32,000 nt of DNA from Mycolicibacterium smegmatis (GTDB lineage: Bacteria > Actinomycetota > Actinomycetes > Mycobacteriales > Mycobacteriaceae), in assembly GCF_001457595.1 (NCBI RefSeq), contig NZ_LN831039.1, positions 1,410,001 through 1,442,000 on the forward strand, read 5' to 3'. The notes under the pieces are model-generated. The model did not search any database. It saw nothing but the letters and a program-made list of their open reading frames with translations, and was not told the DNA's origin. Both the position numbers and the translations under genes were made by a program. Shown here one piece after another: positions 1 through 19,129 of this stretch. The number at the start of each line of letters is the position of its first letter. The first letter of the stretch is position 1.

Positions 1-747
1 ACCCTGGCCGAATGCCAACACATCGATCAGGTCGAGATCGACGCAGAGATTCGCCGCACCGTGGCGGAACTTGGTGGATTTGACTCGGGCACATGGCTGG
101 TCAGCGAGATCCCGCACATCGTGCGGCGGTACACCTCCGCTCACGTCGAGCGCCAGCGCAACCGATGGATTCCCGAGCGTTGGGCAGGTGTATTCGCCGG
201 CCACGAACAGGCTCACGCCGATCTGCGCGAGCACGTTGAAGAAGCCGGCGGTATTGCGCGCAGCTTCCTGCATGCCCAAGCCGGACGCGACCCCGTCGAT
301 CTTTTCCTGATGACCATGGCGTGGGGTTACCAGCCGAAGGACTACGGGCCGCAGCGCACCGCCGCCGTACTGGGCCAGGACGGGGCCGTGGAGAAGATCA
401 ATGCCATCGTGGAGGCCACCCGGACGGACGGGGCGGCCGCTGGATGGAGCGCACTGCTGGACAGCCACAAGATCCGCGGACTGGGCATGTCGTTCGGGAC
501 GAAGCTGCTTTACTACGCGGGCTACACGTGCCACCAAGAGCAGCGGCCGTTGGTACTCGACGAACGCGTACGAGCTGCGCTGGCCATCGTCGCGCCCGGG
601 ACGGTGCCAGCGCGTGGTTGGGTACGTAGGGACGACTATCTGCGGTACCTGGATCTCGCGGAGACGTGGGCGGCCAACCCGGCGTGGAATCAGGCACCGG
701 ACGTCGTGGAGTACGCGCTGTTTTCTCATGGCGGTGTACAGAAATGA
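1..747 (+). CDS. OGG-fold (HhH-GPD-like) DNA-glycosylase-fold protein; 5' end probably lies outside the window
   Basis: The frame is open from nt 1, with no stop before the GTG at 61, to the TGA at 745-747. Segments MTMAWGYQPKDYGPQRT and GLGMSFGTKLLYYAGY...LVLDERV resemble the family annotated as '8-oxoguanine DNA glycosylase OGG fold protein'. This is recalled from memory and not searched. Confidence 0.45.
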   Translation, partial: TLAECQHIDQVEIDAEIRRTVAELGGFDSGTWLVSEIPHIVRRYTSAHVERQRNRWIPERWAGVFAGHEQAHADLREHVEEAGGIARSFLHAQAGRDPVDLFLMTMAWGYQPKDYGPQRTAAVLGQDGAVEKINAIVEATRTDGAAAGWSALLDSHKIRGLGMSFGTKLLYYAGYTCHQEQRPLVLDERVRAALAIVAPGTVPARGWVRRDDYLRYLDLAETWAANPAWNQAPDVVEYALFSHGGVQK

Positions 748-786
748 TTCGCCGGAAATGTTGCGGTGCAGGTGATCGAGGGTGCC

Positions 787-3228
787 ATGTCGGATGAGCG
801 TCTGAAGAACTTCGTGTTGTCGCTGGCTGACCGCGATGACACGTTGAGCGAAGAGGCGAAGCTCGTCGTGCTCGCCGCGCTGGAAGGCGCCGACGACCTC
901 ACGGAGGTGTTGGATCAGTCGGCGACCCGTCCCGATTTGATCGAATCGCTGACCACCACCCACGAGGACACAACCGAACCTGTCGGGGCGTATCTGCGCT
1001 CGATCACCGTGCAGGGATTTCGGGGAATCGGGCCCGAGGTCACGCTCAACTTCCAACCCGGACCAGGCCTGACCGTCGTCGCCGGGCGGAACGGGTCCGG
1101 TAAGTCGACACTTGCGGAAGGTCTCGAGCTCGCACTCACCGGCAAGAACTCGCGCTGGGGTGACAAGCCGGGTGTGTGGTCGCAAAGCTGGCGGAACCTG
1201 CACGCCGGAGAACCGGCGCAGCTCCGTGTGGTGCTGGCCGAAGAAGGCTCGGGCGCAACCATAATCGGAGTGGACTGGCCCGCCGGTGACGACATCGACG
1301 TCGATAATTGCTCGTGCTGGGTGCAGCGGCCCAAACGCAAGCGGGAAGACGTCAGCGCGCTGGGGTGGTCCGGCGCGCTGGAGATGTACCGGCCGCTGCT
1401 GAGCTACGACGAACTGGGCGGCATCCTCGAAGGCGCACCTAGCAAGTTCTACGACCAGCTGCACAAGTTGCTCGGACTGGAGCAACTCACCGAGGCCATG
1501 ACGCGGCTGGAAGCCGAGGTCAAGGTGCTCAAGCAGCCGTCGGAGGAAGGGCGGAAGGCGCGTGCCGCGCTGCGGGTCAAGTTGGAGTCGCATGAGGACC
1601 CACGTGCCGCGAAGGCGCTGACCCAGGTCAAGAAGCGCCGGCCCGACCTCGACGCGCTCCGGCCGTTGGTCACCGGCGGAACGGGGGCCGATGTGCCGAC
1701 AGCTTGGCTACAGGCGGAGGGATTATCGATACCGACCGACGACGAGGTGGCGTTGGCGTGCGAAGTGCTTCGAGCGGCCGCCGGCGCGGAGCTGCAGGAG
1801 GCCGAACGCGCTGACGCTCTAGCCGCGGATCGGAGCCGGGTGTTGTCGATGAGCCTGGATTTCCATGCGGCCCATGGGGATCAGAAGTGTCCGGTCTGCG
1901 GGGAAGGGTATCTCACCGCGGAGTGGGCAACAGCAGCGCGCGAGCTGTTGGAGCAAGACCAACGGGTGGTCAAGGCGCTGGCGGAGGCTCGGCAGGCTGC
2001 CGCCGAGGCGCGCGCCGGAGTCTTGAGCCTTGTGGAGTCAGTCGATGCGCCACCTGCCGATGGGGACGGTGAGCTCACCACCCTGTTGGCTGCGCAGGCA
2101 GCCTTCGAGCAGTTCACCGTGGTCCCAGTTGACGGACAGCGTGCACTTGCCGACCACGTCGAGCACAAACTGCCCGTCCTACGTGATGCCTACACCGCCC
2201 TGCAACAGGAGGCCGCTGAGCTCATCAAGGCGCGACAAGACGCGTGGAGCCCGGTGGCCCTCGAGCTGGCGGCCTGGATGCGGAAGGTGGAACAGGCCAA
2301 CGAGATCGAGCCGCAACTCTCGGTCGCTTCGGAGGCGTTGAAGTGGTTGCAGGACAACGCCGCCGAACTGAGAGATCAGCGCATCGCACCTCTCGCTGAA
2401 CAGTCCCGCCAGATTTGGGCGGCACTGCGACAGGAAAGCAACGTCGAACTCGGTGCGATCCAGTTGGTGGGCCAGAAGACCAGCCGTCGGGTACTACTCA
2501 AAGCTGAAGTCGACGGATCCGACACCGAAGCGTTTGGCGTCATGAGCCAAGGCGAACTACAGGCATTGGCACTGGCGATCTTCATTCCGAGGGCAACATC
2601 GCCGGCGAGCCCCTTCCGGTTCCTGGTGCTCGACGACCCCATTCAGGCGATGGACCCGTCGAAGATCGACGGACTGCTGCACGTGCTGACGCAACTTGCT
2701 GAAACTCGCCAGGTTGTCGTGTTCACCCACGACGACCGACTGCCCGCCGCCATCCGCCGGTCGCGGCTGCCGGCGCGTGTGGTCGAGGTGGTTCGTGGCA
2801 TGAACTCCGTTGTCAGCGTGGCAGAAGCCAGCCGGCCGGCGATGAGAATGCTCGACGACGCGTTCGCCATCGCGGCCGACGACGCAGTCCCAGACGCAAT
2901 CAAACGAGTGGCGGTGCCAGTGCTCTGCCGTGACGCGTTGGAATCGACGGCGTGGGATGTGTTCAGCACCCGCCGTCTGGGGCAGGGGCATTCGCATGCT
3001 GACGTTGAACAACTCTGGGAGACTGCGCGGTTGACCAAGCGGCGTCTTGGGTTGGCGGTGGATCCAGATAACGAGACTGCTCTGGATCGATGGCTTTCCG
3101 GAGGGTCAGCCCGGCGGCATGCGCTGAAGGTGGCGGCGTCTGGTGCCCACAGCGATGTGGTGAACTACCGCGATGCCGTGCACGCGACACGACTCGCGGT
3201 CGGTGACCTCATGAAGCTCTCATCATGA
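787..3228 (+). CDS. Rad50/RloC-like ABC ATPase with coiled-coil insert, CxxC hook and a C-terminal helical domain
   Basis: ATG 787 is preceded by GAGGG (776-780); the track start at 766 is less likely. Walker A is GRNGSGKST (about 1087-1113). A long Ala/Glu/Leu-rich helical insert contains CPVC (TGT 1888, TGC 1897). ABC signature SQGELQAL is at about 2545-2562. Walker B is FLVLDDP (2621-2641), followed by VVVFTHDDR. About 170 aa of extra C-terminal helices carry an R-x3-E motif (CRDALE, 2926-2943). Confidence 0.75.
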   Translation: MSDERLKNFVLSLADRDDTLSEEAKLVVLAALEGADDLTEVLDQSATRPDLIESLTTTHEDTTEPVGAYLRSITVQGFRGIGPEVTLNFQPGPGLTVVAGRNGSGKSTLAEGLELALTGKNSRWGDKPGVWSQSWRNLHAGEPAQLRVVLAEEGSGATIIGVDWPAGDDIDVDNCSCWVQRPKRKREDVSALGWSGALEMYRPLLSYDELGGILEGAPSKFYDQLHKLLGLEQLTEAMTRLEAEVKVLKQPSEEGRKARAALRVKLESHEDPRAAKALTQVKKRRPDLDALRPLVTGGTGADVPTAWLQAEGLSIPTDDEVALACEVLRAAAGAELQEAERADALAADRSRVLSMSLDFHAAHGDQKCPVCGEGYLTAEWATAARELLEQDQRVVKALAEARQAAAEARAGVLSLVESVDAPPADGDGELTTLLAAQAAFEQFTVVPVDGQRALADHVEHKLPVLRDAYTALQQEAAELIKARQDAWSPVALELAAWMRKVEQANEIEPQLSVASEALKWLQDNAAELRDQRIAPLAEQSRQIWAALRQESNVELGAIQLVGQKTSRRVLLKAEVDGSDTEAFGVMSQGELQALALAIFIPRATSPASPFRFLVLDDPIQAMDPSKIDGLLHVLTQLAETRQVVVFTHDDRLPAAIRRSRLPARVVEVVRGMNSVVSVAEASRPAMRMLDDAFAIAADDAVPDAIKRVAVPVLCRDALESTAWDVFSTRRLGQGHSHADVEQLWETARLTKRRLGLAVDPDNETALDRWLSGGSARRHALKVAASGAHSDVVNYRDAVHATRLAVGDLMKLSS

Positions 3229-3575
3229 CCGACCGGTTGGCGCTATTGGATTTCGCCGATCAAGTGCTCGACGGCACCGTCAACCTCGGCGTGCGCGGTC
3301 CTCGTACAGCGGCACTGCTGGCACGTCGCGCGTTCGAAGACTGGCTCGAAGAAGTTAGCCGCTCATGGGCGGCGCACGTAGAGTCTGATCGCCCACCAAC
3401 CACCAGCTCGAAGTTGGTGGTGCTGGGAGCCCTTCGCGGCGAAGAACTCGGCGAGACGGCTAAACGGATATGGCACGGCCTGAGCCACGCCGTGCACCAC
3501 CATGCGTATGAGCTTCAGCCGTCGGTGGCCGAGGTGCGGAGTTTGGTGAGCCAGGTGAGAGCTGTCTGTAACTGA
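3225..3575 (+). CDS. small helical protein, apparent paralog of the C-terminal domain of the upstream ATPase
   Basis: An ATGA start/stop overlap with the ATPase (3225-3228) implies translational coupling. It has an R-x3-E motif (ARRAFE) and a His-rich helix (KRIWHGLSHAVHHH). These align by eye with CRDALE and ARRHALKVAASGAH in the ATPase tail. Confidence 0.6.
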   Translation: MTDRLALLDFADQVLDGTVNLGVRGPRTAALLARRAFEDWLEEVSRSWAAHVESDRPPTTSSKLVVLGALRGEELGETAKRIWHGLSHAVHHHAYELQPSVAEVRSLVSQVRAVCN

Positions 3576-3701: not shown

Positions 3702-3719
3702 AGGAATTGTCAATACCTG
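3701..3719 (-). mobile_element. orphan IS256-family terminal fragment (~19 bp)
   Basis: GAGGAATTGTCAATACCTG is the exact reverse complement of the right terminus of the complete element (CAGGTATTGACAATTCCTC, 10540-10558). The rest is replaced by IS3 copy A. Confidence 0.7.
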
Positions 3720-3768
3720 ATCCGCCCCGGCGTGTCTGGAGAGTTCTTCCGTTGGGAAGGATGGGCAC

Positions 3769-4095
3769 GTGGGATCGAAGTCATCGAGGCGGTATCCAGA
3801 CGAGCTGAAGGTGCGGGCGGTGCAGATGGTGGCCGATCTGCGCAGCGAGACAGTTTCGGAGTGGGAGGCGATGGGCCGGGTTGCTGACCTGCTGGGCGTC
3901 GGTACTGCCGAAACGGTGCGCAAATGGGTCCGCCAGGCTGAGATCGACGCCGGCTCTCGGGCGGGGCAGACCAGCGAGGAATCCGAGGTCCTGCGCAAGC
4001 TGCGCCGGGAGAATGCCGAACTCAAGCGGGCCAACGCGATCTTGAAGGCGGCCTCGGTTTTCTTCGCCGCCGAGCTCGACCGGCCCTCTCAGTAG
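3769..4095 (+). CDS. IS3-family transposase OrfA (HTH plus leucine-zipper region)
   Basis: The 108 aa ORF is identical to 12178-12504(-). It shows the typical OrfA pattern: RRYPDELKVRAV, VRKWVRQAEID, then a coiled LRRENAELKRANAILKKA-type tail. Confidence 0.85.
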   Translation: MGSKSSRRYPDELKVRAVQMVADLRSETVSEWEAMGRVADLLGVGTAETVRKWVRQAEIDAGSRAGQTSEESEVLRKLRRENAELKRANAILKAASVFFAAELDRPSQ

Positions 4096-4097
4096 TC

Positions 4098-5051
4098 GTG
4101 GAGTTCATCAGCGCCCACCAGCACATGCGGGTGGGCGTTGATGGTCTCAAGTGGGGTGTCGAGTCGATGTGCGCTGTGCTTTCCGAGTACGGCGTCACGA
4201 TCGCCCCGTCGACGTATTACGCCCACCGCGCCCGTCAGGGCCCCTCGAAAGCCGACTGGGCCGATGCGCAGGTGATCGATGCGATCTGGCAGCTTCGCCA
4301 ATCGCAGAGTCTGTACCGAGTCCTGGGCGCTCGTAAGACATGGATTGTATTGCGCACCAATGGTATCGACGTATCGCGCTGTGTCGTGGAACGGGTCATG
4401 CGGGAGATGGGTTGGCGGGGTGCGTGCAAGCGCCGGCGGGTGCGCACCACCGTCGCCGATCCGGCAGCGACGCGAGCCCCGGATCGGGTCCGGCGTAATT
4501 TCGTCGCCGGTGCGCCTGACCGATTGTGGGTGGCCGATTTCACCTACTGCCGGACTCGTGCCGGCTGGGCCTACACGGCGTTCGTCACCGATGTCTATGC
4601 CCGCAAGATCGTGGGTTGGAAGGTGGCTACCGAGATGACCCAGAAGCTGGTGACCGATGCGATCGACCACGCTATCGACACCAGAAAGCGTTCGGGTGCA
4701 GCATCTTTGGATTCACTTATCCACCACAGCGACGCGGGCTCGCAATACACCGCGGTCGCGTTCACCGAACGTCTGGCCGCTGAGGGGATCCTGCCTTCAG
4801 TCGGATCCGTCGGGGATAGTTTCGATAATGCTCTGGCCGAATCGGTGAACAGCAGCTACAAGACCGAACTCATCGACCGCCAGCCGCTCTATCCCGGTGC
4901 CACCGAACTGGCGCTGGGGACCGCCGAATGGGTGGCCTTCTACAACCGTCAGCGACCCAACGGCTACTGCCAGGACCTGACCCCCGATCGGGCCGAAGCG
5001 CTCTACTACCACCGCCAACGGCACCCTCATGCCGAGGAGGCACTCAGATAA
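4098..5051 (+). CDS. IS3-family transposase OrfB (rve/DDE integrase core), probably made as an OrfAB fusion by -1 frameshift
   Basis: It lies in the -1 frame relative to orfA, and that frame is open far upstream into orfA. DDE-type blocks are LWVADFTY, HHSDAGSQYT and DNALAESVNSSYKTE. No canonical A AAA AAG site is present; the T-run GGTTTTC (4056-4062) is the only slippery-looking candidate. Confidence 0.85.
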   Translation: MEFISAHQHMRVGVDGLKWGVESMCAVLSEYGVTIAPSTYYAHRARQGPSKADWADAQVIDAIWQLRQSQSLYRVLGARKTWIVLRTNGIDVSRCVVERVMREMGWRGACKRRRVRTTVADPAATRAPDRVRRNFVAGAPDRLWVADFTYCRTRAGWAYTAFVTDVYARKIVGWKVATEMTQKLVTDAIDHAIDTRKRSGAASLDSLIHHSDAGSQYTAVAFTERLAAEGILPSVGSVGDSFDNALAESVNSSYKTELIDRQPLYPGATELALGTAEWVAFYNRQRPNGYCQDLTPDRAEALYYHRQRHPHAEEALR

Positions 5052-5081
5052 GAGAACCTCCCGACATGCCGGGGCGGATCA

Positions 5082-5457
5082 AGGTGAACTCCCGCAACAA
5101 AGTACCAACAGTTGACGGTGCATACACACCGCCAAAGAGTGTCTTCATGCCACCGGCGCGAACCAAGTCGAGGTCATCGATGCTGTCCGCGCCGACACAC
5201 ATGCCGGCGATCACCGTGGTCAGCTTCGGGGACGGATTCGCCGAGCCGGATTTGATCTTCGGTGCCGGAATGGAAATCTTGTCGGCCAACAACTTCGGTA
5301 GTCCGGTCTGGGCCGCCAACGTCATCACCGGCACCAGCCCGGCGCACGACACGAGATGGGCATCATCGAAGACCGCCGACGACACGGCGAACCTATGGGA
5401 CACTTGCACCGGAAGTGCCTTTCTGACCGTGGGCTGATCGAAGTGTGGTAACTCCAA
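5082..5457 (-). pseudogene. IS1380-family transposase, N-terminal fragment
   Basis: MELPHFDQPTVRKALPVQVSHRF...GTLLREFT parallels the N-termini of the ORFs 5669-7117 and 7131-8795. The reading frame then runs into the IS3 terminus. Confidence 0.75.
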
Positions 5458-5533: not shown

Positions 5534-7195
5534 CCTGAATCCGTGGAGCGGCCCTCCTTGAGGTGTCCGTGTGTGGTTTCTGCTGCGTTCGGTGTTGCGG
5601 GCATGCGGTAGTTGCTGGTCTGCCCAGCTTTTCCTGTGTGCTCCGGTTGGGCCTGTTCGGCGCGTTGGTCAGGTCGTTGCCGGTAGCGGTGGGCTGTATC
5701 CGATGGTGTTGCGCCACAACGTGAGCCAGTGCTCTGTCCAGGGCCAGTGCTCGGGGAGGTGCAGGATCGGTCGACGCTGGGGTCGGGCCAGACGGGCGGG
5801 AATGTTGACGATCTTGCGGCGCAGCGTCGCGCCGCGGGCAACCACGTGGGCACCTCCTGCGAGCACGCCGGCGGCGCGCAGCAGGTTGTGCGCGATCGCC
5901 GCGCACAACACCCACGCACTGTTGGCACCGAACTGTCCTGAGGGCATGTGGGCCAGGGGTCCGTCGATCAGATCGGCGAAGACGGTTTCGATGATCGCGT
6001 GCTGGCGGTGGGTGATGTCAGCCTCGGCGGTCGGCAAGTCTGTGTTGGTGAAGAACGGGTGATACCGCCACACCGGGAACAGCGCGTCCCGAAATCTCGC
6101 GTCTTTGACTCGCCGCACCACCAACCGCGCGGTGAACCGATCTTTGGTAGAGGCGAAGGCGGTGTAGCTGACCTCGGCGACCTCGGCATCAGAAATCCAG
6201 TCACCGGTGTCGGGATCACGCACTGCACCGGGATAGTTGACCGGCTCCCAGGCCTGCTCGTCGATCGAACTGATGGCCCGATCAACCGCGGTATTGCGGG
6301 TCATCACCACCGAGAAGTGCGCATTGTGGGCTCGGCAGGCGCCCACCACCGACCGGGTGCCGTAGGACGAATCGCCACGCACCAGCAGTTGCCCGCGCAC
6401 GCCGGCGGCGCGGGCGGTGGCGATGGCTTGGGCGACCATGCGGCCCGCACCCTTCCCGGAACTGGTCTTACCGGCGCGCAGCCGCATCCCGGCGATCACC
6501 GGCGCCGCTCCGGGGGTGCTGATCGTCGTCGCCAACGGGGAGAGCCCTTTACGCAGAACCTGCTTACCAGCGATCTTGGTATGCCCGTAGGAGGCACCCT
6601 GTTTGGCGTGGCCATAGACCGGGCGCAGCAGTGAGTCGATGTCGATGAACGCCCCCGTGTCGGATCCGGGCAGCAGGTCCACCCGCGCACAGAGTGCGGC
6701 CAGATGATGACGCAGGACCGACTCCAACTGCCGGGCGTGTCCGAAGGTGAACTCCCGCAACAGTGTTCCGATCGTCGATGGTGCATAGACCCCATCGAAG
6801 AGCGTCTTCATCCCGCCGCCACGCACGAGGTCGAGGTCATCAATGCTGTCGGCGCCGGCGCACATTCCGGCGACCACGGTGAGCAGCTTCGGCGACGGGT
6901 TGGCCGACCCGGACTTGATCCGTGGTTCGCTGATACGAACCTTGTCGGCCAGCAACTGTGACAGCCCGGTCTGGGTGGCCAGCGTCATTACCGGCACCAG
7001 ACCGGCGCACGACACGAGATGGGCATCATCGAAGACCGCCGACGACGCAGCGAACCTATGGGACACTTTCACCGGAAGTGCCTTTCGAAGTTGTGCCGAT
7101 AAGTGCCTAGAGAACACTCATCATCACAGCTCAGAAGGCACTTTCCTCGTCACGACACCCTGCGACCAGCCAATTCATCGGTGGATCGAGGCTTA
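5529..7195 (-). mobile_element. IS1380-family element, copy 1 (~1.67 kb), apparently intact
   Basis: Termini are CTTAGCCTGAATCCGTGGAGCG (from 5529) and CATCGGTGGATCGAGGCTTAG (ending 7195), forming imperfect inverted repeats. Exact ends are uncertain by a few nt. Confidence 0.7.
5669..7117 (-). CDS. IS1380-family (DDE) transposase
   Basis: This is a 482 aa uninterrupted ORF. It is about 85% similar by eye to the neighbouring copy, and the size and element length fit the IS1380 family. Confidence 0.8.
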   Translation of the reverse strand: MFSRHLSAQLRKALPVKVSHRFAASSAVFDDAHLVSCAGLVPVMTLATQTGLSQLLADKVRISEPRIKSGSANPSPKLLTVVAGMCAGADSIDDLDLVRGGGMKTLFDGVYAPSTIGTLLREFTFGHARQLESVLRHHLAALCARVDLLPGSDTGAFIDIDSLLRPVYGHAKQGASYGHTKIAGKQVLRKGLSPLATTISTPGAAPVIAGMRLRAGKTSSGKGAGRMVAQAIATARAAGVRGQLLVRGDSSYGTRSVVGACRAHNAHFSVVMTRNTAVDRAISSIDEQAWEPVNYPGAVRDPDTGDWISDAEVAEVSYTAFASTKDRFTARLVVRRVKDARFRDALFPVWRYHPFFTNTDLPTAEADITHRQHAIIETVFADLIDGPLAHMPSGQFGANSAWVLCAAIAHNLLRAAGVLAGGAHVVARGATLRRKIVNIPARLARPQRRPILHLPEHWPWTEHWLTLWRNTIGYSPPLPATT

Positions 7196-7204
7196 GGCAG
7201 CACC

Positions 7205-8875
7205 CCTTAGCCTCGATCCGTGGATCGACCCTGTTGAGGTTGTTTGGGGCTGATTTTTGTCGTGCGCCCAGGTCGTGGGCAGCCTGTAGCCGCTGGTCTG
7301 CCCAGCTTTTCCTGTGATGTTCGGGTCGGGGCCTGTGGGTCCGGTGGTCAGTGGGTCGCAGCAGTTGGCGGGCTGTAGCCGATTGTGTTGCGCCACAATG
7401 TGAGCCACTGCTGGGCCCACGGCCAATGCGAGGGTAGATGCAGGATGGGTCGGCGTTGGGGCCGAGCCAGTCGAGCCGGGATGTTGACGATCTTGCGGCG
7501 CAGTGTGGCTCCGCGCGCGAGGGCATGGGCACCGCCGGCGAGCACCCGGCGGCGCGCAGCAGGTTGTGGGCGATCGCCGCGCACAGGACCCAGGCCGAGT
7601 TCGCGCCGAACCGCCCGGAGGGCATATGCGCCAACGGTCCGTCGATCAGGTCGGCGAACACGGTTTCGATGATGGCGTGGCGGCGGTGGGTGATGTCAGC
7701 GGCGTCGACGGGTTCGTCGGAATCGGTGAAGAAGGGGTGATACCGCCACACCGGAAACAGCGCATCGAGGTATCGGGCGTCTTTGACCCGGCGCACGATC
7801 AACCGAGCGGTGACCGGGGTGTTGGTGGAACTGAAAGCGGTGTAGGTGGTTTCGGCGACTTCGGCATCGGAGATCCAGGCGCCGGTGTCGGGGTCGCGCA
7901 CTGCGCCGGGGTAGTTGACCGGGGTCCAGGCGTTATCGCTGATGGCCTCGATGGCCGCAGCGACGGCGCGGGTCTTGGTCAGCACCAGCGAGAAGTGGGC
8001 GCCGGCGCGGCGGCAGGCGGCCACCACGGTGCTGTTGCCGTAGGCCGAGTCTCCGCGCACCAGGATCTGCCCGTTGACACCGGCGGCGCGGGCGGTGGTG
8101 ACTGCTTGGGCGATCATCCGGGCTGCGCCCTTGCCGGAGTTGGTCTTGCCCGCCCGCAGCCGGGCTCCGGTGATCATCGGGGCACCCGTGGTGGTGCTGA
8201 TGGTGGTGATCAGCGGCGAGAGGCCTTTGCGCAGGATCTGCTTGCCGGCGATCTTGGTGTGTCCGTAGGAGGCTCCTTGTTTGGCGTGGCCGTAGACCGG
8301 GCGCAGCAGTGAATCGATGTCGACGAACGCTTGGGTATCGGCGCCGGGTAGCAACGCGACGCGCTCGCAGAGCCCGCCCAGATGCTCACGCAGCACTGCT
8401 TCCAGTTGGCGTGCGTGTCCGAAGGTGAACTCCCGCAACAGTGTTCCGATGGTCGAGGGCGCGTACACGCCGCCAAAGAGGGCTTTCATTCCACCGGAGC
8501 GCACGAGGTCGAGGTCGTCGATGCTGTCGGCGCCGGCGCACATTCCGGCGACCACGGTGAGCAGCTTCGGTGACGGATTGGCCGAGCCGGACTTGATCCG
8601 CGGTTCAACGATTTCGACCTTGTCCGCGATCAGGTCCGATAGCCCGGTCTGGCTGGCCAGGGTCATCACCGGCACCAGGCCGGCGCACGACACCAGATGC
8701 TCATCATCGAACACTGCAGACGCAGCCATGAAGTTGTGCGACACTTTCACCGGAAGTGCCTTTCGAAGTTGTGCCGATAAGTGCGTAAGGAACACTCATC
8801 ATCGCAGCTCAGAAGGCACTTTCCTTATATCGACACCCGCCTATCCAGGCTTTCCATCGGTGGATCGAGGCTTAG
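7205..8875 (-). mobile_element. IS1380-family element, copy 2 (~1.67 kb), transposase frameshifted
   Basis: Termini are CTTAGCCTCGATCCGTGGATCG (from 7205) and CATCGGTGGATCGAGGCTTAG (ending 8875). Only 9 nt separate it from copy 1. Confidence 0.7.
7348..8795 (-). pseudogene. IS1380-family transposase with a 1-nt deletion (~7545)
   Basis: Copy 1 reads GAGCACGCCGGCGGCGCGCA (about 5861-5880) and copy 2 reads GAGCACCCGGCGGCGCGCA (about 7540-7558). After ...LLRAAG the long ORF leaves the conserved frame. The conserved C-terminus (VLAGGAHALARGATLRRKIVNIPARL...) lies in ORF 7348-7584. Confidence 0.7.
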
Positions 8876-9069: not shown

Positions 9070-10558
9070 CGAGCAATGATCAATACCTGTGGATGAGCCT
9101 CGGTGTGGGGGCGTGAAGATGGGCGCACCTTCCCGGGGATGATCTTCACGGAATCAGGTATTCGATCAAGACCGGCGTTGGCGCGCTGGTTGGGAAGGTA
9201 CGCCCATGCTCACCGTAGTTCACGACACCGAGGACGCCAACGACAAGGCCAGCGGTGCTGGTCGGTCGTTGTTGGATGAGATCGTCCGCGACGGGGCCCG
9301 GCAGATGCTGGCCGCGGCGTTGCAGGCCGAGGTCGCCGCCTACGTGGCGCAGTTCGCCGATCAACTCGACGAGAACGGTCACCGGTTGGTGGTGCGAAAC
9401 GGCTATCACCAGCCCCGGGAGGTGCTGACCGCCGCCGGCGCGGTGCAGGTGAAAGCGCCGCGGGTCAACGACCGCCGTGTCGACCCCGACACCGGTGAAC
9501 GCAAGCGGTTCTCCTCGGCGATCCTGCCGGCCTGGGCGCGCAAGTCGCCGCAGATGAGCGAGGTACTGCCGCTGCTGTACCTGCACGGCCTGTCGAGCAA
9601 CGATTTCACCCCTGCCCTCGAGCAGTTCCTCGGCTCCGGCGCTGGGCTGTCGGCCAGCACGATCACCCGGCTCACGGCGCAGTGGCAAGACGAGGCCCGC
9701 GCGTTTGGGGCCCGCGACCTCTCGGCCACTGATTACGTGTATCTGTGGGTCGACGGCATTCACCTCAAGGTGCGGCTGGACCAGGAAAAGCTCTGTCTGC
9801 TGGTGATGCTGGGCGTGCGTGCTGATGGCCGCAAGGAGCTCGTGGCGATCACCGACGGCTACCGCGAGTCGGCCGAGTCGTGGGCCGATCTGTTGCGCGA
9901 CTGCAAGCGCCGCGGCATGACCGCCCCCGTACTCGCGATCGGCGATGGCGCGCTCGGGTTCTGGAAAGCAGTCCGCGAGGTTTTCCCGGCCACCAAAGAG
10001 CAGCGGTGCTGGTTTCATAAGCAGGCCAATGTTCTTGCTGCACTGCCGAAATCAGCGCACCCGTCGGCGCTGGCGGCGATCAAGGAGATCTACAACGCCG
10101 AGGATATCGACAAGGCCCAGATCGCGGTCAAGGCCTTCGAGGCCGACTTCGGCGCGAAGTATCCCAAGGCGGTCGCTAAGATCACCGACGACCTCGATGT
10201 GCTGCTGGAATTCTACAAGTATCCGGCCGAACATTGGATTCATCTGCGAACGACGAATCCGATCGAATCCACCTTTGCCACAGTGCGTTTGAGGACCAAG
10301 GTCACCAAGGGGCCCGGATCACGAGCGGCCGGACTAGCGATGGCCTACAAGCTCATCGACGCCGCCGCGGCCCGCTGGCGTGCCGTCAACGCCCCACACC
10401 TGGTCGCCCTGGTCCGCGCCGGCGCGGTCTTCCATAAAGGCAGACTGCTCGAACGACCCACCGACATCACCCCGCCAACATCGCCCTCAGACGGCGGTCA
10501 GCACGCCGGAACGGAGGTCGCCTGAAACACCCCGATCCACAGGTATTGACAATTCCTC
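9070..10558 (+). mobile_element. complete IS256-family insertion sequence (~1.49 kb)
   Basis: There are ~26-bp imperfect inverted repeats: GAGCAATGATCAATACCTGTGGATGAG at the left, and the reverse complement of the right end, GAGGAATTGTCAATACCTGTGGATCGG. It has a single 439 aa transposase and a 9-bp TSD. Size, inverted repeat and TSD match what I recall for IS6120 of M. smegmatis, which I cannot verify here. Confidence 0.85.
9206..10525 (+). CDS. IS256-family transposase
   Basis: The 439 aa ORF has typical IS256/mutator-type blocks: YLWVDGIHLKVR, LAIGDGALGFWKA, QRCWFHKQANVL, TTNPIESTFATVRLR. Confidence 0.9.
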   Translation: MLTVVHDTEDANDKASGAGRSLLDEIVRDGARQMLAAALQAEVAAYVAQFADQLDENGHRLVVRNGYHQPREVLTAAGAVQVKAPRVNDRRVDPDTGERKRFSSAILPAWARKSPQMSEVLPLLYLHGLSSNDFTPALEQFLGSGAGLSASTITRLTAQWQDEARAFGARDLSATDYVYLWVDGIHLKVRLDQEKLCLLVMLGVRADGRKELVAITDGYRESAESWADLLRDCKRRGMTAPVLAIGDGALGFWKAVREVFPATKEQRCWFHKQANVLAALPKSAHPSALAAIKEIYNAEDIDKAQIAVKAFEADFGAKYPKAVAKITDDLDVLLEFYKYPAEHWIHLRTTNPIESTFATVRLRTKVTKGPGSRAAGLAMAYKLIDAAAARWRAVNAPHLVALVRAGAVFHKGRLLERPTDITPPTSPSDGGQHAGTEVA

Positions 10559-10838: not shown

Positions 10839-11221
10839 AGATCCAGCACCGCCTCATCTCGATGGGTTGGTTGCTTGGCCAGTCTCACGAGACGGCCCGT
10901 CTGGCGCAAATGGCCCGGCTTACCAGCGCAACTCGATGACTGCATGTCGCTTATTTACCGGAGGGTTTTTTGTGGTTTTTCTTGCTTTTCTTGTTCTTCT
11001 TTTTGTCGTTTTTCCTATTGTCGGACTTCTTCGATGACTGCGCCTTAGATCCCGAGTTACGACCTTGACCGCCGGCCTGATTGTTCTCACGGGCGGGTCT
11101 GCTGCACGAACAGGTGACATCTGAGTTGGCTTGTCCAGCGTGGGCAGGCTGGAAGGATGTCCCCATGGCAAGGCCCTATCCCCGTGAGTTCTGATCCACC
11201 CCGGCATGTCGGGAGGTTCTC

Positions 11222-12175
11222 TTATCTGAGTGCCTCCTCGGCATGAGGGTGCCGTTGGCGATGGTAGTAGAGCGCTTCGGCCCGATCGGGGGTCAGGTCC
11301 TGGCAGTAGCCGTTGGGTCGCTGACGGTTGTAGAAGGCCACCCATTCGGCGGTCCCCAGCGCCAGTTCGGTGGCACCGGGATAGAGCGGCTGGCGGTCGA
11401 TGAGTTCGGTCTTGTAGCTGCTGTTCACCGATTCGGCCAGAGCATTATCGAAACTATCCCCGACGGATCCGACTGAAGGCAGGATCCCCTCAGCGGCCAG
11501 ACGTTCGGTGAACGCGACCGCGGTGTATTGCGAGCCCGCGTCGCTGTGGTGGATAAGTGAATCCAAAGATGCTGCACCCGAACGCTTTCTGGTGTCGATA
11601 GCGTGGTCGATCGCATCGGTCACCAGCTTCTGGGTCATCTCGGTAGCCACCTTCCAACCCACGATCTTGCGGGCATAGACATCGGTGACGAACGCCGTGT
11701 AGGCCCAGCCGGCACGAGTCCGGCAGTAGGTGAAATCGGCCACCCACAATCGGTCAGGCGCACCGGCGACGAAATTACGCCGGACCCGATCCGGGGCTCG
11801 CGTCGCTGCCGGATCGGCGACGGTGGTGCGCACCCGCCGGCGCTTGCACGCACCCCGCCAACCCATCTCCCGCATGACCCGTTCCACGACACAGCGCGAT
11901 ACGTCGATACCATTGGTGCGCAATACAATCCATGTCTTACGAGCGCCCAGGACTCGGTACAGACTCTGCGATTGGCGAAGCTGCCAGATCGCATCGATCA
12001 CCTGCGCATCGGCCCAGTCGGCTTTCGAGGGGCCCTGACGGGCGCGGTGGGCGTAATACGTCGACGGGGCGATCGTGACGCCGTACTCGGAAAGCACAGC
12101 GCACATCGACTCGACACCCCACTTGAGACCATCAACGCCCACCCGCATGTGCTGGTGGGCGCTGATGAACTCCAC
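11222..12175 (-). CDS. IS3-family transposase OrfB (copy B)
   Basis: The 317 aa protein is identical to 4098-5051. Confidence 0.85.
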   Translation of the reverse strand: MEFISAHQHMRVGVDGLKWGVESMCAVLSEYGVTIAPSTYYAHRARQGPSKADWADAQVIDAIWQLRQSQSLYRVLGARKTWIVLRTNGIDVSRCVVERVMREMGWRGACKRRRVRTTVADPAATRAPDRVRRNFVAGAPDRLWVADFTYCRTRAGWAYTAFVTDVYARKIVGWKVATEMTQKLVTDAIDHAIDTRKRSGAASLDSLIHHSDAGSQYTAVAFTERLAAEGILPSVGSVGDSFDNALAESVNSSYKTELIDRQPLYPGATELALGTAEWVAFYNRQRPNGYCQDLTPDRAEALYYHRQRHPHAEEALR

Positions 12176-12177
12176 GA

Positions 12178-12504
12178 CTACTGAGAGGGCCGGTCGAGCT
12201 CGGCGGCGAAGAAAACCGAGGCCGCCTTCAAGATCGCGTTGGCCCGCTTGAGTTCGGCATTCTCCCGGCGCAGCTTGCGCAGGACCTCGGATTCCTCGCT
12301 GGTCTGCCCCGCCCGAGAGCCGGCGTCGATCTCAGCCTGGCGGACCCATTTGCGCACCGTTTCGGCAGTACCGACGCCCAGCAGGTCAGCAACCCGGCCC
12401 ATCGCCTCCCACTCCGAAACTGTCTCGCTGCGCAGATCGGCCACCATCTGCACCGCCCGCACCTTCAGCTCGTCTGGATACCGCCTCGATGACTTCGATC
12501 CCAC
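12178..12504 (-). CDS. IS3-family transposase OrfA (copy B)
   Basis: The 108 aa protein is identical to 3769-4095. Confidence 0.85.
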   Translation of the reverse strand: MGSKSSRRYPDELKVRAVQMVADLRSETVSEWEAMGRVADLLGVGTAETVRKWVRQAEIDAGSRAGQTSEESEVLRKLRRENAELKRANAILKAASVFFAAELDRPSQ

Positions 12505-12815
12505 GTGCCCATCCTTCCCAACGGAAGAACTCTCCAGACACGCCGGGGCGGATCATTCCGCGACGACGTCGTGCGCGTGGCCCGCAACCGCGAAGACGGT
12601 GTGACGATCGAGCAGATCGCCACCGATTTCGGTGTGCACCCGATGACGCTGCACAAATGGCTTCGCCAGGCCGACATCGACGAGGGCACCAAGCCCGGTA
12701 GAACCACCAGCGAGTCCGGTGAGCTGCGTGAGGCCCGGCGTCGGATCAAGCTGCTCGAGCTGGAGAACGAGGTGCTGCGCCGGGCCGCGGCGTATCTGTC
12801 ACAGGCCAACCTGCC

Positions 12816-14110: not shown

Positions 14111-15022
14111 ATGGTGCTCGGCCTGGCCGGCGCCGCAGCAACCCTTTTCGACACACAACTCGACGGTCTCGTGTCCGACAGCCTCGGTAAGTTGAAACAA
14201 TCGAACTTGATCAAGGGATGGGAAGCTGACGGCCGGCGCCTGCCGATCGATTACACCGGAATCGGCGTGGGCGGCCCCGGGCATCGGGTGAAGTCTGCCG
14301 GGCATGATCTAGCTCGGCCCCTCGAAGCGCTCCGTCAGATCCGCGAAGGAGTCTTTCGTGCAACGGCATGGCCGCACGGGAACGAGATGTCCGTCGAGGT
14401 GTCGTTATCCACCTGGCGCACGGTGGACAGCTGGCCGGAAGCCATGATCCTGTGGGCGAAGCATCTGGCTGCCGACATCGTTACCCCGATGAGCCTGCCG
14501 ATACCGGGGTTCAGCAAGCTGAACGAGTTGGACAACCAATGGGTACGCGAGTTCGCCTACGCAGCCTACGAAGGACCGCGACCACTCGGTCAGGGGCTCA
14601 ATGTTCGGTCGGGGATGCTGACACCGACACTGTCGGTGCTCAGCACTGAGGCGATCATCCGCACCCACATATTGGCCCGTGCGTACCAGACCCGCGGCAC
14701 TCTACAACTGACTGCAGCCGAACGCGCATTGCAGACCGAGATGCTCCTCGCCGGACATGGGCTCGTCGGTGCCGTGGCCCTTGGCAAGTCGACCGCAGTC
14801 CTCCTTCTGACCGAGAATCCGGCCTTCGCGGTGCGACACATCAATGTCCCCGTCCTGATGCGAATCGCCACTTTGGGCTGGAGTGCGCTCCAGGACCAGC
14901 GTCGACGCGCGACGGCCGCGGCGCCATCCTGGGACGATCTTCTCCTCGAATGGGCGAGGCCGTGGCAGCTCGACGCTGTTCTCGAAATTGAGGTGGAAGC
15001 CAAGCGCCTCACTTTGGTTTGA
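14111..15022 (+). CDS. hypothetical protein, no family recognised; true start uncertain
   Basis: 303 aa from the first ATG, with no Shine-Dalgarno (SD) sequence upstream. The same frame is open and coding-like for 195 nt upstream (WEDVDLYSALTPAQQERYESWLDSQRLPWARDDF). Hydrophobic segments occur near the C-terminus. More A/T at third positions than in neighbouring genes. Confidence 0.6.
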   Translation: MVLGLAGAAATLFDTQLDGLVSDSLGKLKQSNLIKGWEADGRRLPIDYTGIGVGGPGHRVKSAGHDLARPLEALRQIREGVFRATAWPHGNEMSVEVSLSTWRTVDSWPEAMILWAKHLAADIVTPMSLPIPGFSKLNELDNQWVREFAYAAYEGPRPLGQGLNVRSGMLTPTLSVLSTEAIIRTHILARAYQTRGTLQLTAAERALQTEMLLAGHGLVGAVALGKSTAVLLLTENPAFAVRHINVPVLMRIATLGWSALQDQRRRATAAAPSWDDLLLEWARPWQLDAVLEIEVEAKRLTLV

Positions 15023-15042: not shown

Positions 15043-16122
15043 TTACCGGTCAGCCCACCAGGGCGGGAAGCTGATATCAAGCCGCTCGCTGCGGCGGTAG
15101 CCCGCCCAGGTGGGCACCCCAACTGGCTGTCCGCGGTAGATTCCGCGAGCCGCGGCGACGACCCGTGGATGCTGGGTCGGCCATTGCAGGGTTGATGCAA
15201 TCTCCTCGAGCACTGCTACATCCCGCCCCAGTACACGATCAACGATCGCCACCGCGGGCAACGCGCCACCCTTGTCGCTGTTGCAGCGCGCACATGCCAG
15301 GACCAGGTTGGCCAGACCGTCGATCCCGACCAACGACCAGGGCAGCACGTGGTCGATCGGGTTGTCTGCGGGTAGATGAGTCCCGCAGTAAAAGCAGTGT
15401 GGGCCAAAGGCTTCCTTGAACGGCTCGCGCACCGCGGCGAGTGCGGTGCGTTCACGTCCGAACAGGTGGCCGGCGACATCAGGCACGTCGGCGTCGAGGA
15501 ATCGGTTCATCCGCCGCACGTCCTCCACCCACATGATTTCCAGTGCGGGCTTCAGCAGTCCGGCCAACCGCGCCAGACCGTGCGCGACGCCCGGTTTGAG
15601 CACGATCGCGTTACCGTGGGCACGCAGCGTCTTGCGGCTCACGTCGTCGTGCAGGAACGAGTCGTCGTAGAGGAACGCGTCGCTGCTCGATGCACCCGGC
15701 AACTTCTGCAACCGGTACAGGGGCTGCTGCGCCAGACACAGCATGATGTCGTCGATGGCGCGGTCATAGGCTTCCGGAGCACGCAGCCGCGCGATGTCTA
15801 CGGACAGCCCGCCACGCCGCGTCGCCGCAGCATCACGTAGGGCCTTCGTGGCAGCGAGGATCCGAGCCTTCGGCTGGGTGGACTGACGCAACTCATGCCC
15901 ATCGAAGGGCCGAACTTGGTGCCAGTAAAGCTCCAGCACACGATGTGCCAGCGCGGGAATCGGCACGGCGAGCGTGTCCGCGGGGTCGGCGGGCAGGTTC
16001 TCGACACAGTGCTCGATCAACGCCATCAACGTCGCGAGCTTGTAGGTGGCGGTGCGCAGACCGGTTTCGAGGATGGCGACCACGCGCTGTCCGAGCAGCA
16101 GAGGGTCGGATGCCTCGGTCAC
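15043..16122 (-). CDS. HNH endonuclease with uncharacterised ~230 aa N-terminal domain (paralog 1)
   Basis: C-terminal HNH zinc-finger core: CFYCGTHL...IDHVLPWSLVGIDGLANLVLACARCNSDKG. 359 aa. Confidence 0.8.
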   Translation of the reverse strand: MTEASDPLLLGQRVVAILETGLRTATYKLATLMALIEHCVENLPADPADTLAVPIPALAHRVLELYWHQVRPFDGHELRQSTQPKARILAATKALRDAAATRRGGLSVDIARLRAPEAYDRAIDDIMLCLAQQPLYRLQKLPGASSSDAFLYDDSFLHDDVSRKTLRAHGNAIVLKPGVAHGLARLAGLLKPALEIMWVEDVRRMNRFLDADVPDVAGHLFGRERTALAAVREPFKEAFGPHCFYCGTHLPADNPIDHVLPWSLVGIDGLANLVLACARCNSDKGGALPAVAIVDRVLGRDVAVLEEIASTLQWPTQHPRVVAAARGIYRGQPVGVPTWAGYRRSERLDISFPPWWADR

Positions 16123-16230: not shown

Positions 16231-17358
16231 TCACGTGGCCCCGAACGCCTCCACATACAGCGCATAGAGCGAATGCGATGCGGCCATGTAGAGGCGGTTG
16301 TTCTCCGGGCCGCCGAAGGTGAGGTTGGCGCAGCGTTCGGGCAGGTGGATGAAACCGATCGGCTTGCCCTGCGGGTTGAAAACCATGACGCCGTCGAGAT
16401 TTTCGGGCTTGCCGCGGAGTTCGTACACCTTGCGGCCACCGACGTCGGTCGGCTGGTCGGCGACCAGGCCGTTGCTGCCCCAGCCGCACCACAGATTGCC
16501 GTCGCGGTCGACGGTGAACCCGTCAAGCGCGCCCTGGTCGGCGGCGTCGATCAGCTTGGTCTTGTTGGCGACGGTGCCGTCGTCGTTGACGTCGAAGCTC
16601 CACAGGCTGCGGTTCGGGGTGCCGCGCCACTCGATCACGTAGAGCTTTTTCTCGTCGGGGGAGAACCCGATCCCGTTTGGGTTGACCAGGTCGGTGATCA
16701 CCGCGGTCAGCTCACCGTCAGGCGTGAGCCGGTAGACGTTGGTGGTCGCCTGCTCGGGCTCGGCGCGGCTGCCTTCCCATTCACCGTTGATGCCGAACAA
16801 CGGATCGGTGAACCAGATGGTGTCGTCGGATTTCACCACGATGTCGTTGGGCGCGTTGAGTCGCTTGCCCTCGAAACTGTCGGCCAGCACGGTGATGTCG
16901 CCGTTCTCCTCGGTGCGGGTGATGCGCCGCGTCTCGGAGTGCTCACACGTGACGAGCCGGCCCTGGCGGTCGCGCGTGTTCCCGTTCGAGTAGTTCGACG
17001 GATGGCGGAATACCGTGAAGCTGCCGTCTTTTTCGTCGAACTTCATGAGCCGGTTGTTCGGGGTGTCGCTGCACAGCAGGTAGCCGCCGTCGGGGAAGTA
17101 CACCGGTCCTTCGGCCCAGCGCATGCCGGTGGCGACCTGCTCGAGCGAGCTGGAGAACAGCCGGTACTTGGTGATGCTCGGATCGAGGATCTCGATCGCC
17201 GGATCGGGATAGCGCTGGTTCGGCTGGAATGGCGGGGTCGGGGGAGCGGAGGGTTGCGCCTGGGGTTGTTGCGCCGCCGACGACGAGCACGCGCCCGTGG
17301 TCATGGCCACAATGGTCGCCGCCGTCCCGAAAAGCAAGTTGCGCCGCGTCGTGTACAT
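16231..17358 (-). CDS. SMP-30/gluconolactonase/LRE-like beta-propeller protein, probable Tat-exported lipoprotein
   Basis: It has a twin-arginine signal TRRNLLFG, a hydrophobic stretch and a lipobox-like TGAC. Blocks [51 protein letters not shown] and [15 protein letters not shown] are typical of the family. Confidence 0.8.
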
Positions 17359-17538: not shown

Positions 17539-18618
17539 TCACCGGTCAGCCCACCACGGCGGAAATCGGATATCCAACTGCTCACTGCGGCGGTACCCCG
17601 CCCACGTCGGCACACCGGCCGGCTGTCCGCGGTAGATGCCGCGGGCCGCGGCGACCACCCGTGGATGCTGGGTCGGCCACTGAATTTCCGACGCGATCTC
17701 CTCGAGCACCGTCCGGTCGCGTTCCAGCACACGGTCGACTATCCCCACCGCGGGTAAGGCCCCACCTTTGTCGCCGTTACAGCGCGCACACGCCAGCACC
17801 AGGTTGGCCAGGCCGTCGATGCCGACCAGCGACCAGGGCAGCACATGGTCGATCGGATTGTTCGCGGGAAGGTGCGTTCCGCAGTAGAAGCAGTGCGGGC
17901 CAAAGGCTTCCTTGAACGGCTCGCGCACCACGGCCAGGGCGGTGCGCTCACGGCCGAACAGGTGCCCCGCCACATCGGGCACATCGGCGTCGAGGAACCG
18001 GTTCATCCTCCGCACGTCCTCGACCCACATGATCTCCAGCGCGGGTTTCAGGAGTCCGGCCAGCCGGGCAAGGCCATGGGCGACACCGGGTTTGAGGACG
18101 ATCGCGTCGCCGTGATCCCGCAGCGTCTTGCGGCTGACGTCATCGTGCAGGAACGAGTCGTCGTAGAGGAACGCGTCGCTGCGCGATGCGCCCGGAAGCT
18201 TCTGCAACCGGTACAGGGGTTGCTGCGCGAGACACAGCGTGATGTCGTCGATGGCCCGCTGATAGGCCTCCGGTGCGCGCTGCCGTGCGATGTCGACCGA
18301 CAGTCCGCCACGCCGTGTCGCCGCGAGATCGCGTAAGGCCTTGGTGGCGGCGAGGATCCGGGCCTTCGGCTGAGTGGACTGGCGCAGCTCGTGACCGTCG
18401 AAAGGGCGCACCTGCTGCCAGTAGATCTCCAGCACGCGGTGCGCCAGCGCGGGAATGGGCACGGCCAGCGTGGCGGCGGGATCGGTGGGCAGGTTCTCGA
18501 CGCAGTGCTCGATCAGGGCCATCAGGGTCGCGAGCTTGTAAGTCGCGGTGCGCAGCCCGGTCTCCAGGATGGCGACGACGCGCTGCCCGAGTAGCAGCGG
18601 ATCGGATGCTCCTGTCAC
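17539..18618 (-). CDS. HNH endonuclease (paralog 2)
   Basis: I chose the GTG at 18616-18618 as the start (VTGASDPLLLGQ..., colinear with MTEASDPLLLGQ of paralog 1). This gives the same 1080-nt length. The upstream part of the track ORF to 18834 has wrong-frame composition. Confidence 0.8.
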   Translation of the reverse strand: MTGASDPLLLGQRVVAILETGLRTATYKLATLMALIEHCVENLPTDPAATLAVPIPALAHRVLEIYWQQVRPFDGHELRQSTQPKARILAATKALRDLAATRRGGLSVDIARQRAPEAYQRAIDDITLCLAQQPLYRLQKLPGASRSDAFLYDDSFLHDDVSRKTLRDHGDAIVLKPGVAHGLARLAGLLKPALEIMWVEDVRRMNRFLDADVPDVAGHLFGRERTALAVVREPFKEAFGPHCFYCGTHLPANNPIDHVLPWSLVGIDGLANLVLACARCNGDKGGALPAVGIVDRVLERDRTVLEEIASEIQWPTQHPRVVAAARGIYRGQPAGVPTWAGYRRSEQLDIRFPPWWADR

Positions 18619-18688
18619 GCCACCCCCATGTCGGTGCACTGCGCCACAACGGTTCGACAGGATTATCACGAAGGGAACCGACAGCGTG
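17539..18688 (-). repeat. ~1.15 kb direct repeat, unit 2
   Basis: See unit 1 (15043-16190). Confidence 0.75.
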
Positions 18689-19122: not shown

Positions 19123-19129
19123 TGTGCGT

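Follow-up and report, generated by a model that had tools for sequence, protein, structure and literature searches.

RESULTS

A compact gene cluster at the beginning of a 32,000-nucleotide stretch of the Mycolicibacterium smegmatis genome (contig NZ_LN831039.1, positions 1,410,001 to 1,442,000; here referred to as the window) raises the question of which of its genes belong together and what they might do. The preliminary description of the first 3,575 nucleotides had proposed an uncharacterized three-gene defense module, consisting of a DNA glycosylase-fold protein (gene 1), a RloC/Rad50-like ABC ATPase with a zinc hook (gene 2), and a small paralog of the ATPase C-terminal domain (gene 3). 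We find that the conserved unit is the pair of ATPase and small protein. The reading that we favor, at roughly even confidence, is that this pair constitutes a two-gene, translationally coupled, predicted ABC-HEPN defense module of the abortive-infection type that follows the logic of RloC and Lamassu.

The ATPase gene and the small downstream gene travel together

Positions 1-3575 of the window hold three open reading frames (ORFs), all on the + strand. Gene 1 (1..747, +) comprises the 3' 248 codons of a gene for a protein of ~304-317 amino acids (aa) with MazG-like and OGG-like (PF21790) domains and ends in a TGA at 745-747. A spacer of 39 nt (748..786, +) leads to gene 2 (787..3228, +), whose predicted 813-aa product is a Rad50/LmuB-like ABC ATPase that has a coiled coil, bears a zinc hook, and ends in a helical domain. 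The start of gene 2 is best placed at ATG 787, since GAGGG lies 6 nt upstream and homologs open with M(S/A)D(D/E)RLKN, and it is this start that gives the 39-nt gap to gene 1. Gene 3 (3225..3575, +) encodes a HEPN-like helical-bundle protein of 116 aa with five predicted helices, and the ATGA at 3225-3228 is common to the gene 2 stop and the gene 3 start. Inspection of the spacers revealed no promoter- or terminator-like site between the genes. The shared strand, the 39-nt gap, and the ATGA overlap reported in the preliminary description are thus all borne out.

A search for the ATPase with one genome per species returned 157 confirmed relatives, from which we kept 80 loci at 39-77% identity to the window ATPase. 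These loci originate from Mycobacteriales, Pseudonocardiales, a Propionibacteriaceae metagenome-assembled genome (MAG), and Jiangella, and all belong to Actinomycetota except one MAG contig labelled Candidatus Sericytochromatia. That contig carries a mycobacterial-type pair (62% identity) adjoining suf genes and is probably mis-binned actinobacterial DNA rather than an occurrence in the cyanobacterial lineage. Three closer relatives, at 87-92% identity, comprise two metagenome contigs and M. goodii CP012150.

A homolog of the small gene lies directly downstream of the ATPase gene in 79 of the 80 loci (tblastn), and 70 of these 79 show a 4-nt overlap between the ATPase stop and the start of the small gene. 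The pair is also present on two Streptomyces plasmids. A gene 1 homolog in the upstream-adjacent position on the same strand was found in none of the 80 loci, three of which (L001, L044, and L071) are short contigs with less than 2 kb of upstream sequence, where its position was not assessable. Because the small gene follows the ATPase gene in 79 of 80 loci and gene 1 lies upstream in none of the assessable ones, we consider the pair to be the conserved unit. Co-conservation of all three genes had been set beforehand as a check on the three-gene proposal, and here the proposal failed: the window's exact trio recurs only in the three closer relatives, so that gene 1 is adjacent only at an identity of at least 87%.

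The surroundings of the pair differ from locus to locus, with the commonest flanking family besides the small gene reaching only 13 of the 80 loci. Neighbors include SauUSI-type PLD-helicase-DUF3427 proteins (13 loci), SIR2_2, HNH, ADP-ribosylglycohydrolase, and HD_4 genes. Scaffold 2 of Rhodococcus sp. BP-334 carries two diverged ATPase-small gene pairs (L055 and L076) ~90 kb apart. We also considered a fourth operon gene, split off in the window by the nest of insertion sequences (IS) that follows gene 3, and rejected it: the genes after the small gene in two of the closer relatives (L081 and M. goodii, L083) are mutually unrelated and absent from the window.

Gene 2 encodes a predicted zinc-hook ABC ATPase with an additional helical domain

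The ATPase contains a Walker A motif, GRNGSGKST (1084..1110, +; residues 100-108), a CPVC zinc-hook motif (1888..1899, +; residues 368-371) midway in the insert of ~480 aa between Walker A and signature, the ABC signature SQGELQAL (2545-2568, +; residues 587-594), and a Walker B/D-loop segment, FLVLDDPIQAMD, that begins at 2620 within the feature 2545..2640 (+) and includes FLVLDDP (residues 612-618). A Walker B of this DDP type, we presume, typifies the PrrC/RloC family. THD follows at residues 647-649 and CRDALE at 714-719. Pro/Gly-free stretches of 30 and 36 residues (334-363 and 375-410) lie on either side of CPVC, consistent with a coiled coil predicted from the sequence, and the CxxC stands between Walker A and the signature, as in the hook of RloC and PrrC. 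Over 73 homologs of 39-77% identity, all of these motifs are at least 90-95% conserved, and C368, P369, V370, and C371 are each conserved in at least 95%. Pfam SMC_N matches residues 69-652, a span that indicates a split ABC head, and AAA_23 and AAA_21 match as well. Every element listed in the preliminary description is therefore present, from Walker A and CPVC via the signature and Walker B to the R-x3-E of a helical tail; the length of the tail, given there as ~170 aa, has to be corrected to ~135-160 aa beyond the ABC head. These features support the view that the protein is an ABC ATPase of the Rad50-like, coiled-coil type, which has a zinc hook and, at its C-terminus, an additional helical domain in which R-x3-E...H is conserved.

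The ATPase family is large (973 clusters at 90% identity). Pfam AAA_13 (PF13166), which we take to be the RloC/PrrC family model, reaches 26.0 bits where 36 are required, and its alignment is limited to residues 494-649 of the ATPase and positions 414-570 of the 713 in the profile; the precomputed AAA_13 match on close relatives is graded faint. PADLOC profiles gave partial matches only, the best being mad3 (for the window protein, C-lobe only) and LmuB PDLC03859. The latter matches residues 206-657 at an E value of 7e-21 over profile positions 229-593 of 611 and was again best for a Rhodococcus relative (9e-28) and a Streptomyces relative (6e-23). The LmuB matches span the coiled coil and the C-lobe, with 73-96 bits over ~420 profile positions, which is low for that length, and no curated cut-off is shown for PADLOC profiles. 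No RloC- or PrrC-named family appeared in the PADLOC lists at an E value of ≤1e-5, and whether PADLOC has such models was not established.

Placement in a housekeeping family (RecN, RecF, or SbcC) had been named in advance as an outcome that would speak against a defense module. The NCBIfam scores for RecF, RecN, and SMC are far below their cut-offs (recF, 28 versus 172; rad50, 23 versus 454; SMC, 20 versus 729), and no SbcD or Mre11 gene adjoins the ATPase gene in the window, its neighbors there being the OGG-like gene 1 on the upstream side and gene 3 on the downstream side. Given these scores and the variable genomic context, we dropped the housekeeping labels SbcC and RecF that the sequence sources attach to the protein.

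The small protein and the ATPase tail are predicted HEPN-like domains with a similar set of conserved residues

The small-protein family comprises 1097 clusters at 90% identity and 1075 at 50% identity. Its members are nearly all free-standing proteins of 110-150 aa, and the named members that we looked up are all from Actinomycetota, apart from one spurious Phytophthora match. R27, R34, E38, S62, W83, L86, H91, H93, Y95, E96, and L97 are invariant (in the window, R34 at 3324-3326, E38 at 3336-3338, and H91 and H93 within 3495-3503, +). An AlphaFold 2 model has five helices and a mean predicted local distance difference test (pLDDT) score of 92.8, and in this model the protein adopts what appears to be a HEPN-type up-down helical bundle. 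In a Foldseek comparison with the PDB, seven of the eight top matches were HEPN proteins or toxins (2q00, 8xeh, 2hsb, 7ae6, and 8yuf), with 2q00 matching at a probability of 1.0 and a template modeling (TM) score of 0.65. UniRef names some members DUF4145 or HEPN domain containing, and Pfam DUF4145 matched 1 of 29 members (E = 0.11). For gene 3, no significant match came from Pfam, NCBIfam, or PADLOC, and a Foldseek comparison of the small protein with viral structures likewise yielded none.

The all-helical C-terminal domain of the ATPase (2812..3225, +; residues 676-813) is weakly HEPN-like. Its model has seven helices and a pLDDT of 88.8. Three residues stand out in this tail, R715 (2929-2931), E719 (2941-2943), and H788 (3148-3150), all on the + strand and each at least 95% conserved over the 73 ATPases. 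They are spaced as R715-x3-E719-x68-H788, and the small protein has R34-x3-E38-x52-H91.

Are the two domains related, as the preliminary description had claimed? BLASTP of gene 3 against the ATPase found no similarity (E = 8), and a weak signal emerged with profile methods only. Aligned with hhalign, tail and small protein gave a score of 21.7 over 105 columns, end to end (P = 0.0067), in a register that places R34, E38, and H93 opposite R715, E719, and H788. None of 150 block-shuffled controls reached this score (mean, 12.5 ± 2.7; maximum, 19.7), and a more diverse small-protein alignment gave P = 0.0016. Positions 6-60 of a small-protein hidden Markov model (HMM) matched ATPase residues ~680-735 in six ATPases (independent E value, 0.01-0.08) among 1143 proteins. 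Reciprocally, the tail HMM matched small proteins at the corresponding place, and the matches were confined to helices 1-2. Together with the same predicted helix order, these results make the claimed kinship plausible, and they lend weak to moderate support to the two domains being distant paralogs, most clearly so in helices 1-2. A short motif is also shared between SEEAKLVVLAALEG in the ATPase (residues 21-36; 847-894) and TSSKLVVLGALRG in the small protein (residues 60-73; 3402-3443); both families conserve it (hhalign P = 0.0024), and it could reflect chance or a common interaction motif.

A predicted ATPase-controlled RNase and its alternatives

Starting from the observed linkage, motif conservation, predicted folds, and variable, defense-rich context, we propose the following mechanism. 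The ATPase would dimerize via the CPxC zinc hook at the tip of its coiled coil and sense a DNA structure associated with infection, such as DNA ends or replication intermediates. Rad50, RloC, and LmuB are thought to sense DNA features of infection via zinc-hook dimers (PMC3458546, PMC10586767). ATP-driven movements of the heads would then control a HEPN-type RNase site. Since HEPN RNases need a dimer for their active site, which forms at the dimer interface (PMC13017515), we suggest that the ATPase tail and the small protein build this site together. Translation would stop once tRNA or mRNA is cleaved, with an anti-phage or anti-plasmid outcome.

Several observations weigh against this reading. 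The module is a prediction for every member of the family, and its central biochemical features are suggested by weak fold and profile matches. The Foldseek matches of the small protein to HEPN structures have E values of 0.07-0.6, and for the tail a HEPN structure (4nqf) appears only at rank 3 in the PDB comparison, with a probability of 0.66, a TM score of 0.45, and an E value of ~1. Pfam and PDB sequence-profile searches with both domains gave chance-level matches only, nothing significant. The canonical HEPN motif Rx4-6H is absent from both, and no conserved Arg stands 4-6 residues ahead of H91 or H93 in the small protein. The similarity between tail and small protein is marginal in absolute terms (hhalign probability, 6-16%). 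No phage record in our phage search encodes the ATPase, and the pair occurs in no phage genome. Several mycobacterial loci have the pair beside the housekeeping suf operon, and the richness in defense genes around the pair is a qualitative judgment made without a genome-wide background.

Of the other explanations, the one that survives best, though we regard it as doubtful, resembles Lamassu: the small protein would be the sole effector, a dead tail would hold it as an inactive monomer, and its release would yield an active homodimeric RNase. The small-protein family has the larger number of invariant polar residues (R27, R34, E38, S62, H91, H93, Y95, and E96) and a better HEPN fold match than the tail, the ATPase is closest to LmuB, and HEPN sites form at dimer interfaces (PMC13017515). 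The conservation of R715, E719, and H788 in at least 95% of tails over 39-77% identity is, however, unexpected in a decoy, unless these are interface residues.

A second alternative depends on gene 1. In the preliminary description the cluster begins with a DNA glycosylase-fold protein, and the fold assignment stands: gene 1 matches Pfam PF21790 (OGG) at an E value of 7e-42, with 143.8 bits against a cut-off of 27, over an OGG domain at ~142-723 (+). The gene is, however, incomplete in the window, and its protein has a second domain. Its frame is open to base 1, which indicates that the window start cuts it; the proteins of the three closer relatives are 304-317 aa long, placing the window start at about residue 57 and ~170-210 nt of the 5' end outside. 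The N-terminal ~90 residues form a MazG/PRA-PH-type nucleoside triphosphate pyrophosphatase domain, as indicated by PF03819 and PF01503 matches of homologs and by the name nucleoside triphosphate pyrophosphohydrolase given to homologs. The helix-hairpin-helix Lys of FGTK (K224; 502-504, +) and the Asp of LVLD 19 residues on (D243; 559-561, +) are invariant in 41 family members. K249 and D268 of human OGG1 have the same 19-residue spacing. Given the invariance and this spacing, the domain may be an active glycosylase/lyase, not an inactivated sensor. PADLOC had no match for gene 1 (at an E value of ≤1) or for its full-length form.

All three genes might then be one system, in which the MazG-OGG protein recognizes or excises modified phage bases and the Rad50-like ATPase senses the resulting lesions or breaks and fires the HEPN-like effector. 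We judge this unlikely. All three genes do run in one direction, and the 39 nt that separate genes 1 and 2 show nothing like a terminator; three relatives retain the trio; PF21790-type domains are modified-base sensors in END nucleases (bioRxiv 10.1101/2025.03.31.646159); and an OGG-family gene lies within 8 kb of the pair in ~8 of 81 loci (the window included), apparently in about four lineages (Rhodococcus, Jiangella, M. arenosum, and the window clade). Yet the pair has no such gene in ~90% of loci, and where the gene is present outside the window its strand or its position differs; in Rhodococcus it has the opposite orientation and is separated from the pair by unrelated genes. The three relatives with the trio are so closely related that they provide no independent evidence, and in the seven other contexts examined MazG-OGG lacks an ATPase of this kind and is found with different partners. 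In three loci (L087-L089; 5003-6945) an HNH nuclease gene (333 aa) precedes a MazG-OGG gene with a 4-nt overlap, and in another (L094; 5423-6687) a Mrr_cat gene (190 aa), whose protein matches the C-terminal half of the PADLOC candidate PDC-S02 (E = 5e-72), precedes an OGG gene beside a type I restriction-modification (R-M) system. These two-gene units look like split versions of END-type nucleases. Elsewhere, a MazG-OGG family gene accompanies an uncharacterized 445-aa gene inside a McrBC/NaeI island (L086), and OGG-family genes occur on mobilizable elements (L090 and L091), in a resolvase/Abi_C region (L092), and in a SIR2_2/DUF4268 region of M. mageritense (L093). We therefore view gene 1 as a portable module in its own right, directed at noncanonical bases, that landed upstream of the pair in the M. 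smegmatis/goodii-like lineage; a functional link to the pair is possible.

We consider it improbable that the pair has no nuclease function and is instead an SMC/Rad50-like DNA machine for repair, plasmid restriction, or segregation, with the helical bundles serving as adaptors and the effector encoded elsewhere. The missing Rx4-6H, the weak fold matches of both domains, the SbcC and RecF annotations, and the suf neighbors of some loci would fit such a machine. Against it stand the lack of a linked SbcD/Mre11-like, kleisin, or KITE partner; a patchy, strain-variable distribution with variable flanks and paralogous copies; the invariant Arg/Glu/His set in both domains, which suggests catalysis; and the subthreshold RecF, RecN, and SMC scores. 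Least likely of all is the compound proposal that the pair is a widespread actinobacterial abortive-infection system with an ATPase-gated, noncanonical, split heterodimeric HEPN RNase that in M. smegmatis and M. goodii is wired to a MazG-OGG protein making breaks from modified phage bases, which if true would be a suicide switch triggered by base excision, with strand breaks as the signal sensed by the ATPase.

Genomic neighborhood of the pair

According to the preliminary description, the cluster sits directly next to a Wadjet remnant. The Wadjet system is in fact complete (jetABCD at 19790-26337) and 16 kb from gene 3; what adjoins gene 3 is the IS nest, from 3718 on. Two IS3-family copies of 1364 bp, 99.85% identical and in inverted orientation (3718-5081, +, and 11192-12555, -), bracket IS1380-like transposase genes at 5669-7117 and 7131-8795, with a further N-terminal piece at 5044-5457, as well as a gene for an IS256/Mutator transposase at 9206-10525; the block looks like a composite transposon or an inversion-prone segment. 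The Wadjet genes encode JetA (DUF3375), JetB (DUF4194/MksE), JetC (a 1150-aa SbcC-like ATPase), and JetD (DUF3322 plus JetD_C) and lie between a Fic/Doc gene (19324-19713), which is preceded by a small ORF (19124-19327), and a PIN gene (26612-27001). The Wadjet insert is missing from M. goodii between its HNH and SEC-C genes. With jetABCD, Fic, and PIN genes in the window and defense genes near other loci, the claim of a defense-rich location is sustained.

Between the IS nest and the first of two HNH genes lies a 303-aa ORF (14111-15022, +) that has a coding-type bias in third-position GC content and no Pfam match. The two HNH genes (15043-16122, -, and 17539-18834, -) are paralogous, with ~85% nucleotide identity, and flank an SMP-30/gluconolactonase gene (16231-17358). 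In M. goodii (L083), a gene for a 2120-aa HEPN_Swt1-DUF4011-AAA_11/12-MTES_1575-DUF3320 protein (1-637 of that locus) lies upstream of the trio, and the same island also holds NUDIX/NrtR and ADP-ribosylglycohydrolase genes upstream of the trio as further defense-type content.

DISCUSSION

The preliminary description had recognized no named system in this gene combination, and a check with PADLOC, which had been set beforehand, agrees: the combination matches no PADLOC system. In the literature searched, which did not cover the main classification of ABC ATPases, no account came up of an ABC ATPase that bears a HEPN-like tail and is joined by an obligatory free HEPN-like subunit. Six new actinobacterial systems (Ceres, Geb, Veles, Prithvi, and Ukko, together with Oshun) were considered and set aside: domains are named for three of them, none of which is an ABC ATPase, and HEPN, Rad50, or SMC is not mentioned. 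The pair is common (973 ATPase clusters, 1075 small-protein clusters, and 157 genome matches) yet lies outside PADLOC 2.0, and its being both common and uncaptured implies a sizeable blind spot in the annotation of actinobacterial defense. This blind spot includes the mycobacteria, where phage therapy is in use.

Among known systems, comparison is most direct with RloC and Lamassu, since the ATPase resembles RloC in predicted architecture and is nearest to LmuB in sequence, which suggests an ABC-HEPN or Lamassu-like variant. Like RloC, an anticodon nuclease that excises the wobble nucleotide, it is a single polypeptide of ~800 aa whose ABC head is interrupted by a coiled coil bearing a CxxC zinc hook (PMC2610378, PMC3710099), both have an extra C-terminal helical domain with a conserved R-x3-E...H, and both RloC and the window pair usually lack R-M linkage (PMC2610378, PMC3710099). 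The verified RloC triad is R-x3-E-x36-52-H (PMC2610378). The RloC label of the preliminary description could nevertheless not be kept: the ATPase is under the AAA_13 threshold (26 versus 36 bits), its best profile is LmuB, and the Glu-His spacing of its tail is 68 versus 36-52 in RloC (the small protein's is 52). The pair also differs from RloC in its obligatory second gene, which encodes a HEPN-like protein on its own and has no counterpart in the descriptions of RloC in the literature surveyed, and in an ATPase family found almost only in Actinomycetota.

Likeness to Lamassu, also called ABC-3C or DdmABC, lies in LmuB PDLC03859 as the best ATPase profile match (E values of 7e-21 to 9e-28), in a short coiled coil with a CPxCG-type hook, which is frequent in LmuB relatives (PMC10586767), and in a small partner gene and a defense-island context. 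Differences are just as clear. No homolog is present of LmuA, the Lamassu effector, or of LmuC, the middle component that only some Lamassu systems have, genes 1 and 3 have no PADLOC match at an E value of ≤1, and the small protein of the Streptomyces relative has none at ≤1e-5. The partner gene lies downstream of the ATPase gene in the window pair and upstream in Lamassu, part of what appears to be an effector-like domain is fused to the window ATPase, and the Walker B catalytic position is Asp in the window ATPase and usually Gln in LmuB.

Two further comparisons concern the genes singly. The defense protein RAZR has DUF4145 as a divergent HEPN RNase (PMC13017515). The small protein shares with RAZR/PD-T7-4 a small, all-helical, divergent HEPN-like domain, some members of its family are named DUF4145 or HEPN, and 7AE6, the HEPN toxin used as the structural reference in the RAZR paper (PMC13017515), is among its Foldseek matches. 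It differs in having neither a zinc-finger domain nor an R-x7-H motif, and it is presumably activated via the ATPase, whereas RAZR is activated via phage ring proteins. END nucleases combine a nuclease with an inactivated EndoIII/OGG-like sensor of modified bases of the PF21790 type (bioRxiv 10.1101/2025.03.31.646159). Gene 1, and gene 1 only, resembles them in having the same PF21790 domain and in the position of family members beside HNH or Mrr_cat genes and in R-M and McrBC islands; it differs in that it has no fused nuclease, carries the MazG-like N-terminal domain, and keeps the Lys/Asp residues. MazG-OGG proteins with retained glycosylase residues and varied nucleases would thus extend the END-nuclease logic to two-gene, possibly catalytically active systems. 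The pair itself would join a DNA sensor of the Lamassu/Rad50 type with a fused RNase of the RloC type and, in a twist that the literature surveyed does not describe, would divide the effector fold among the sensor and a separate small subunit.

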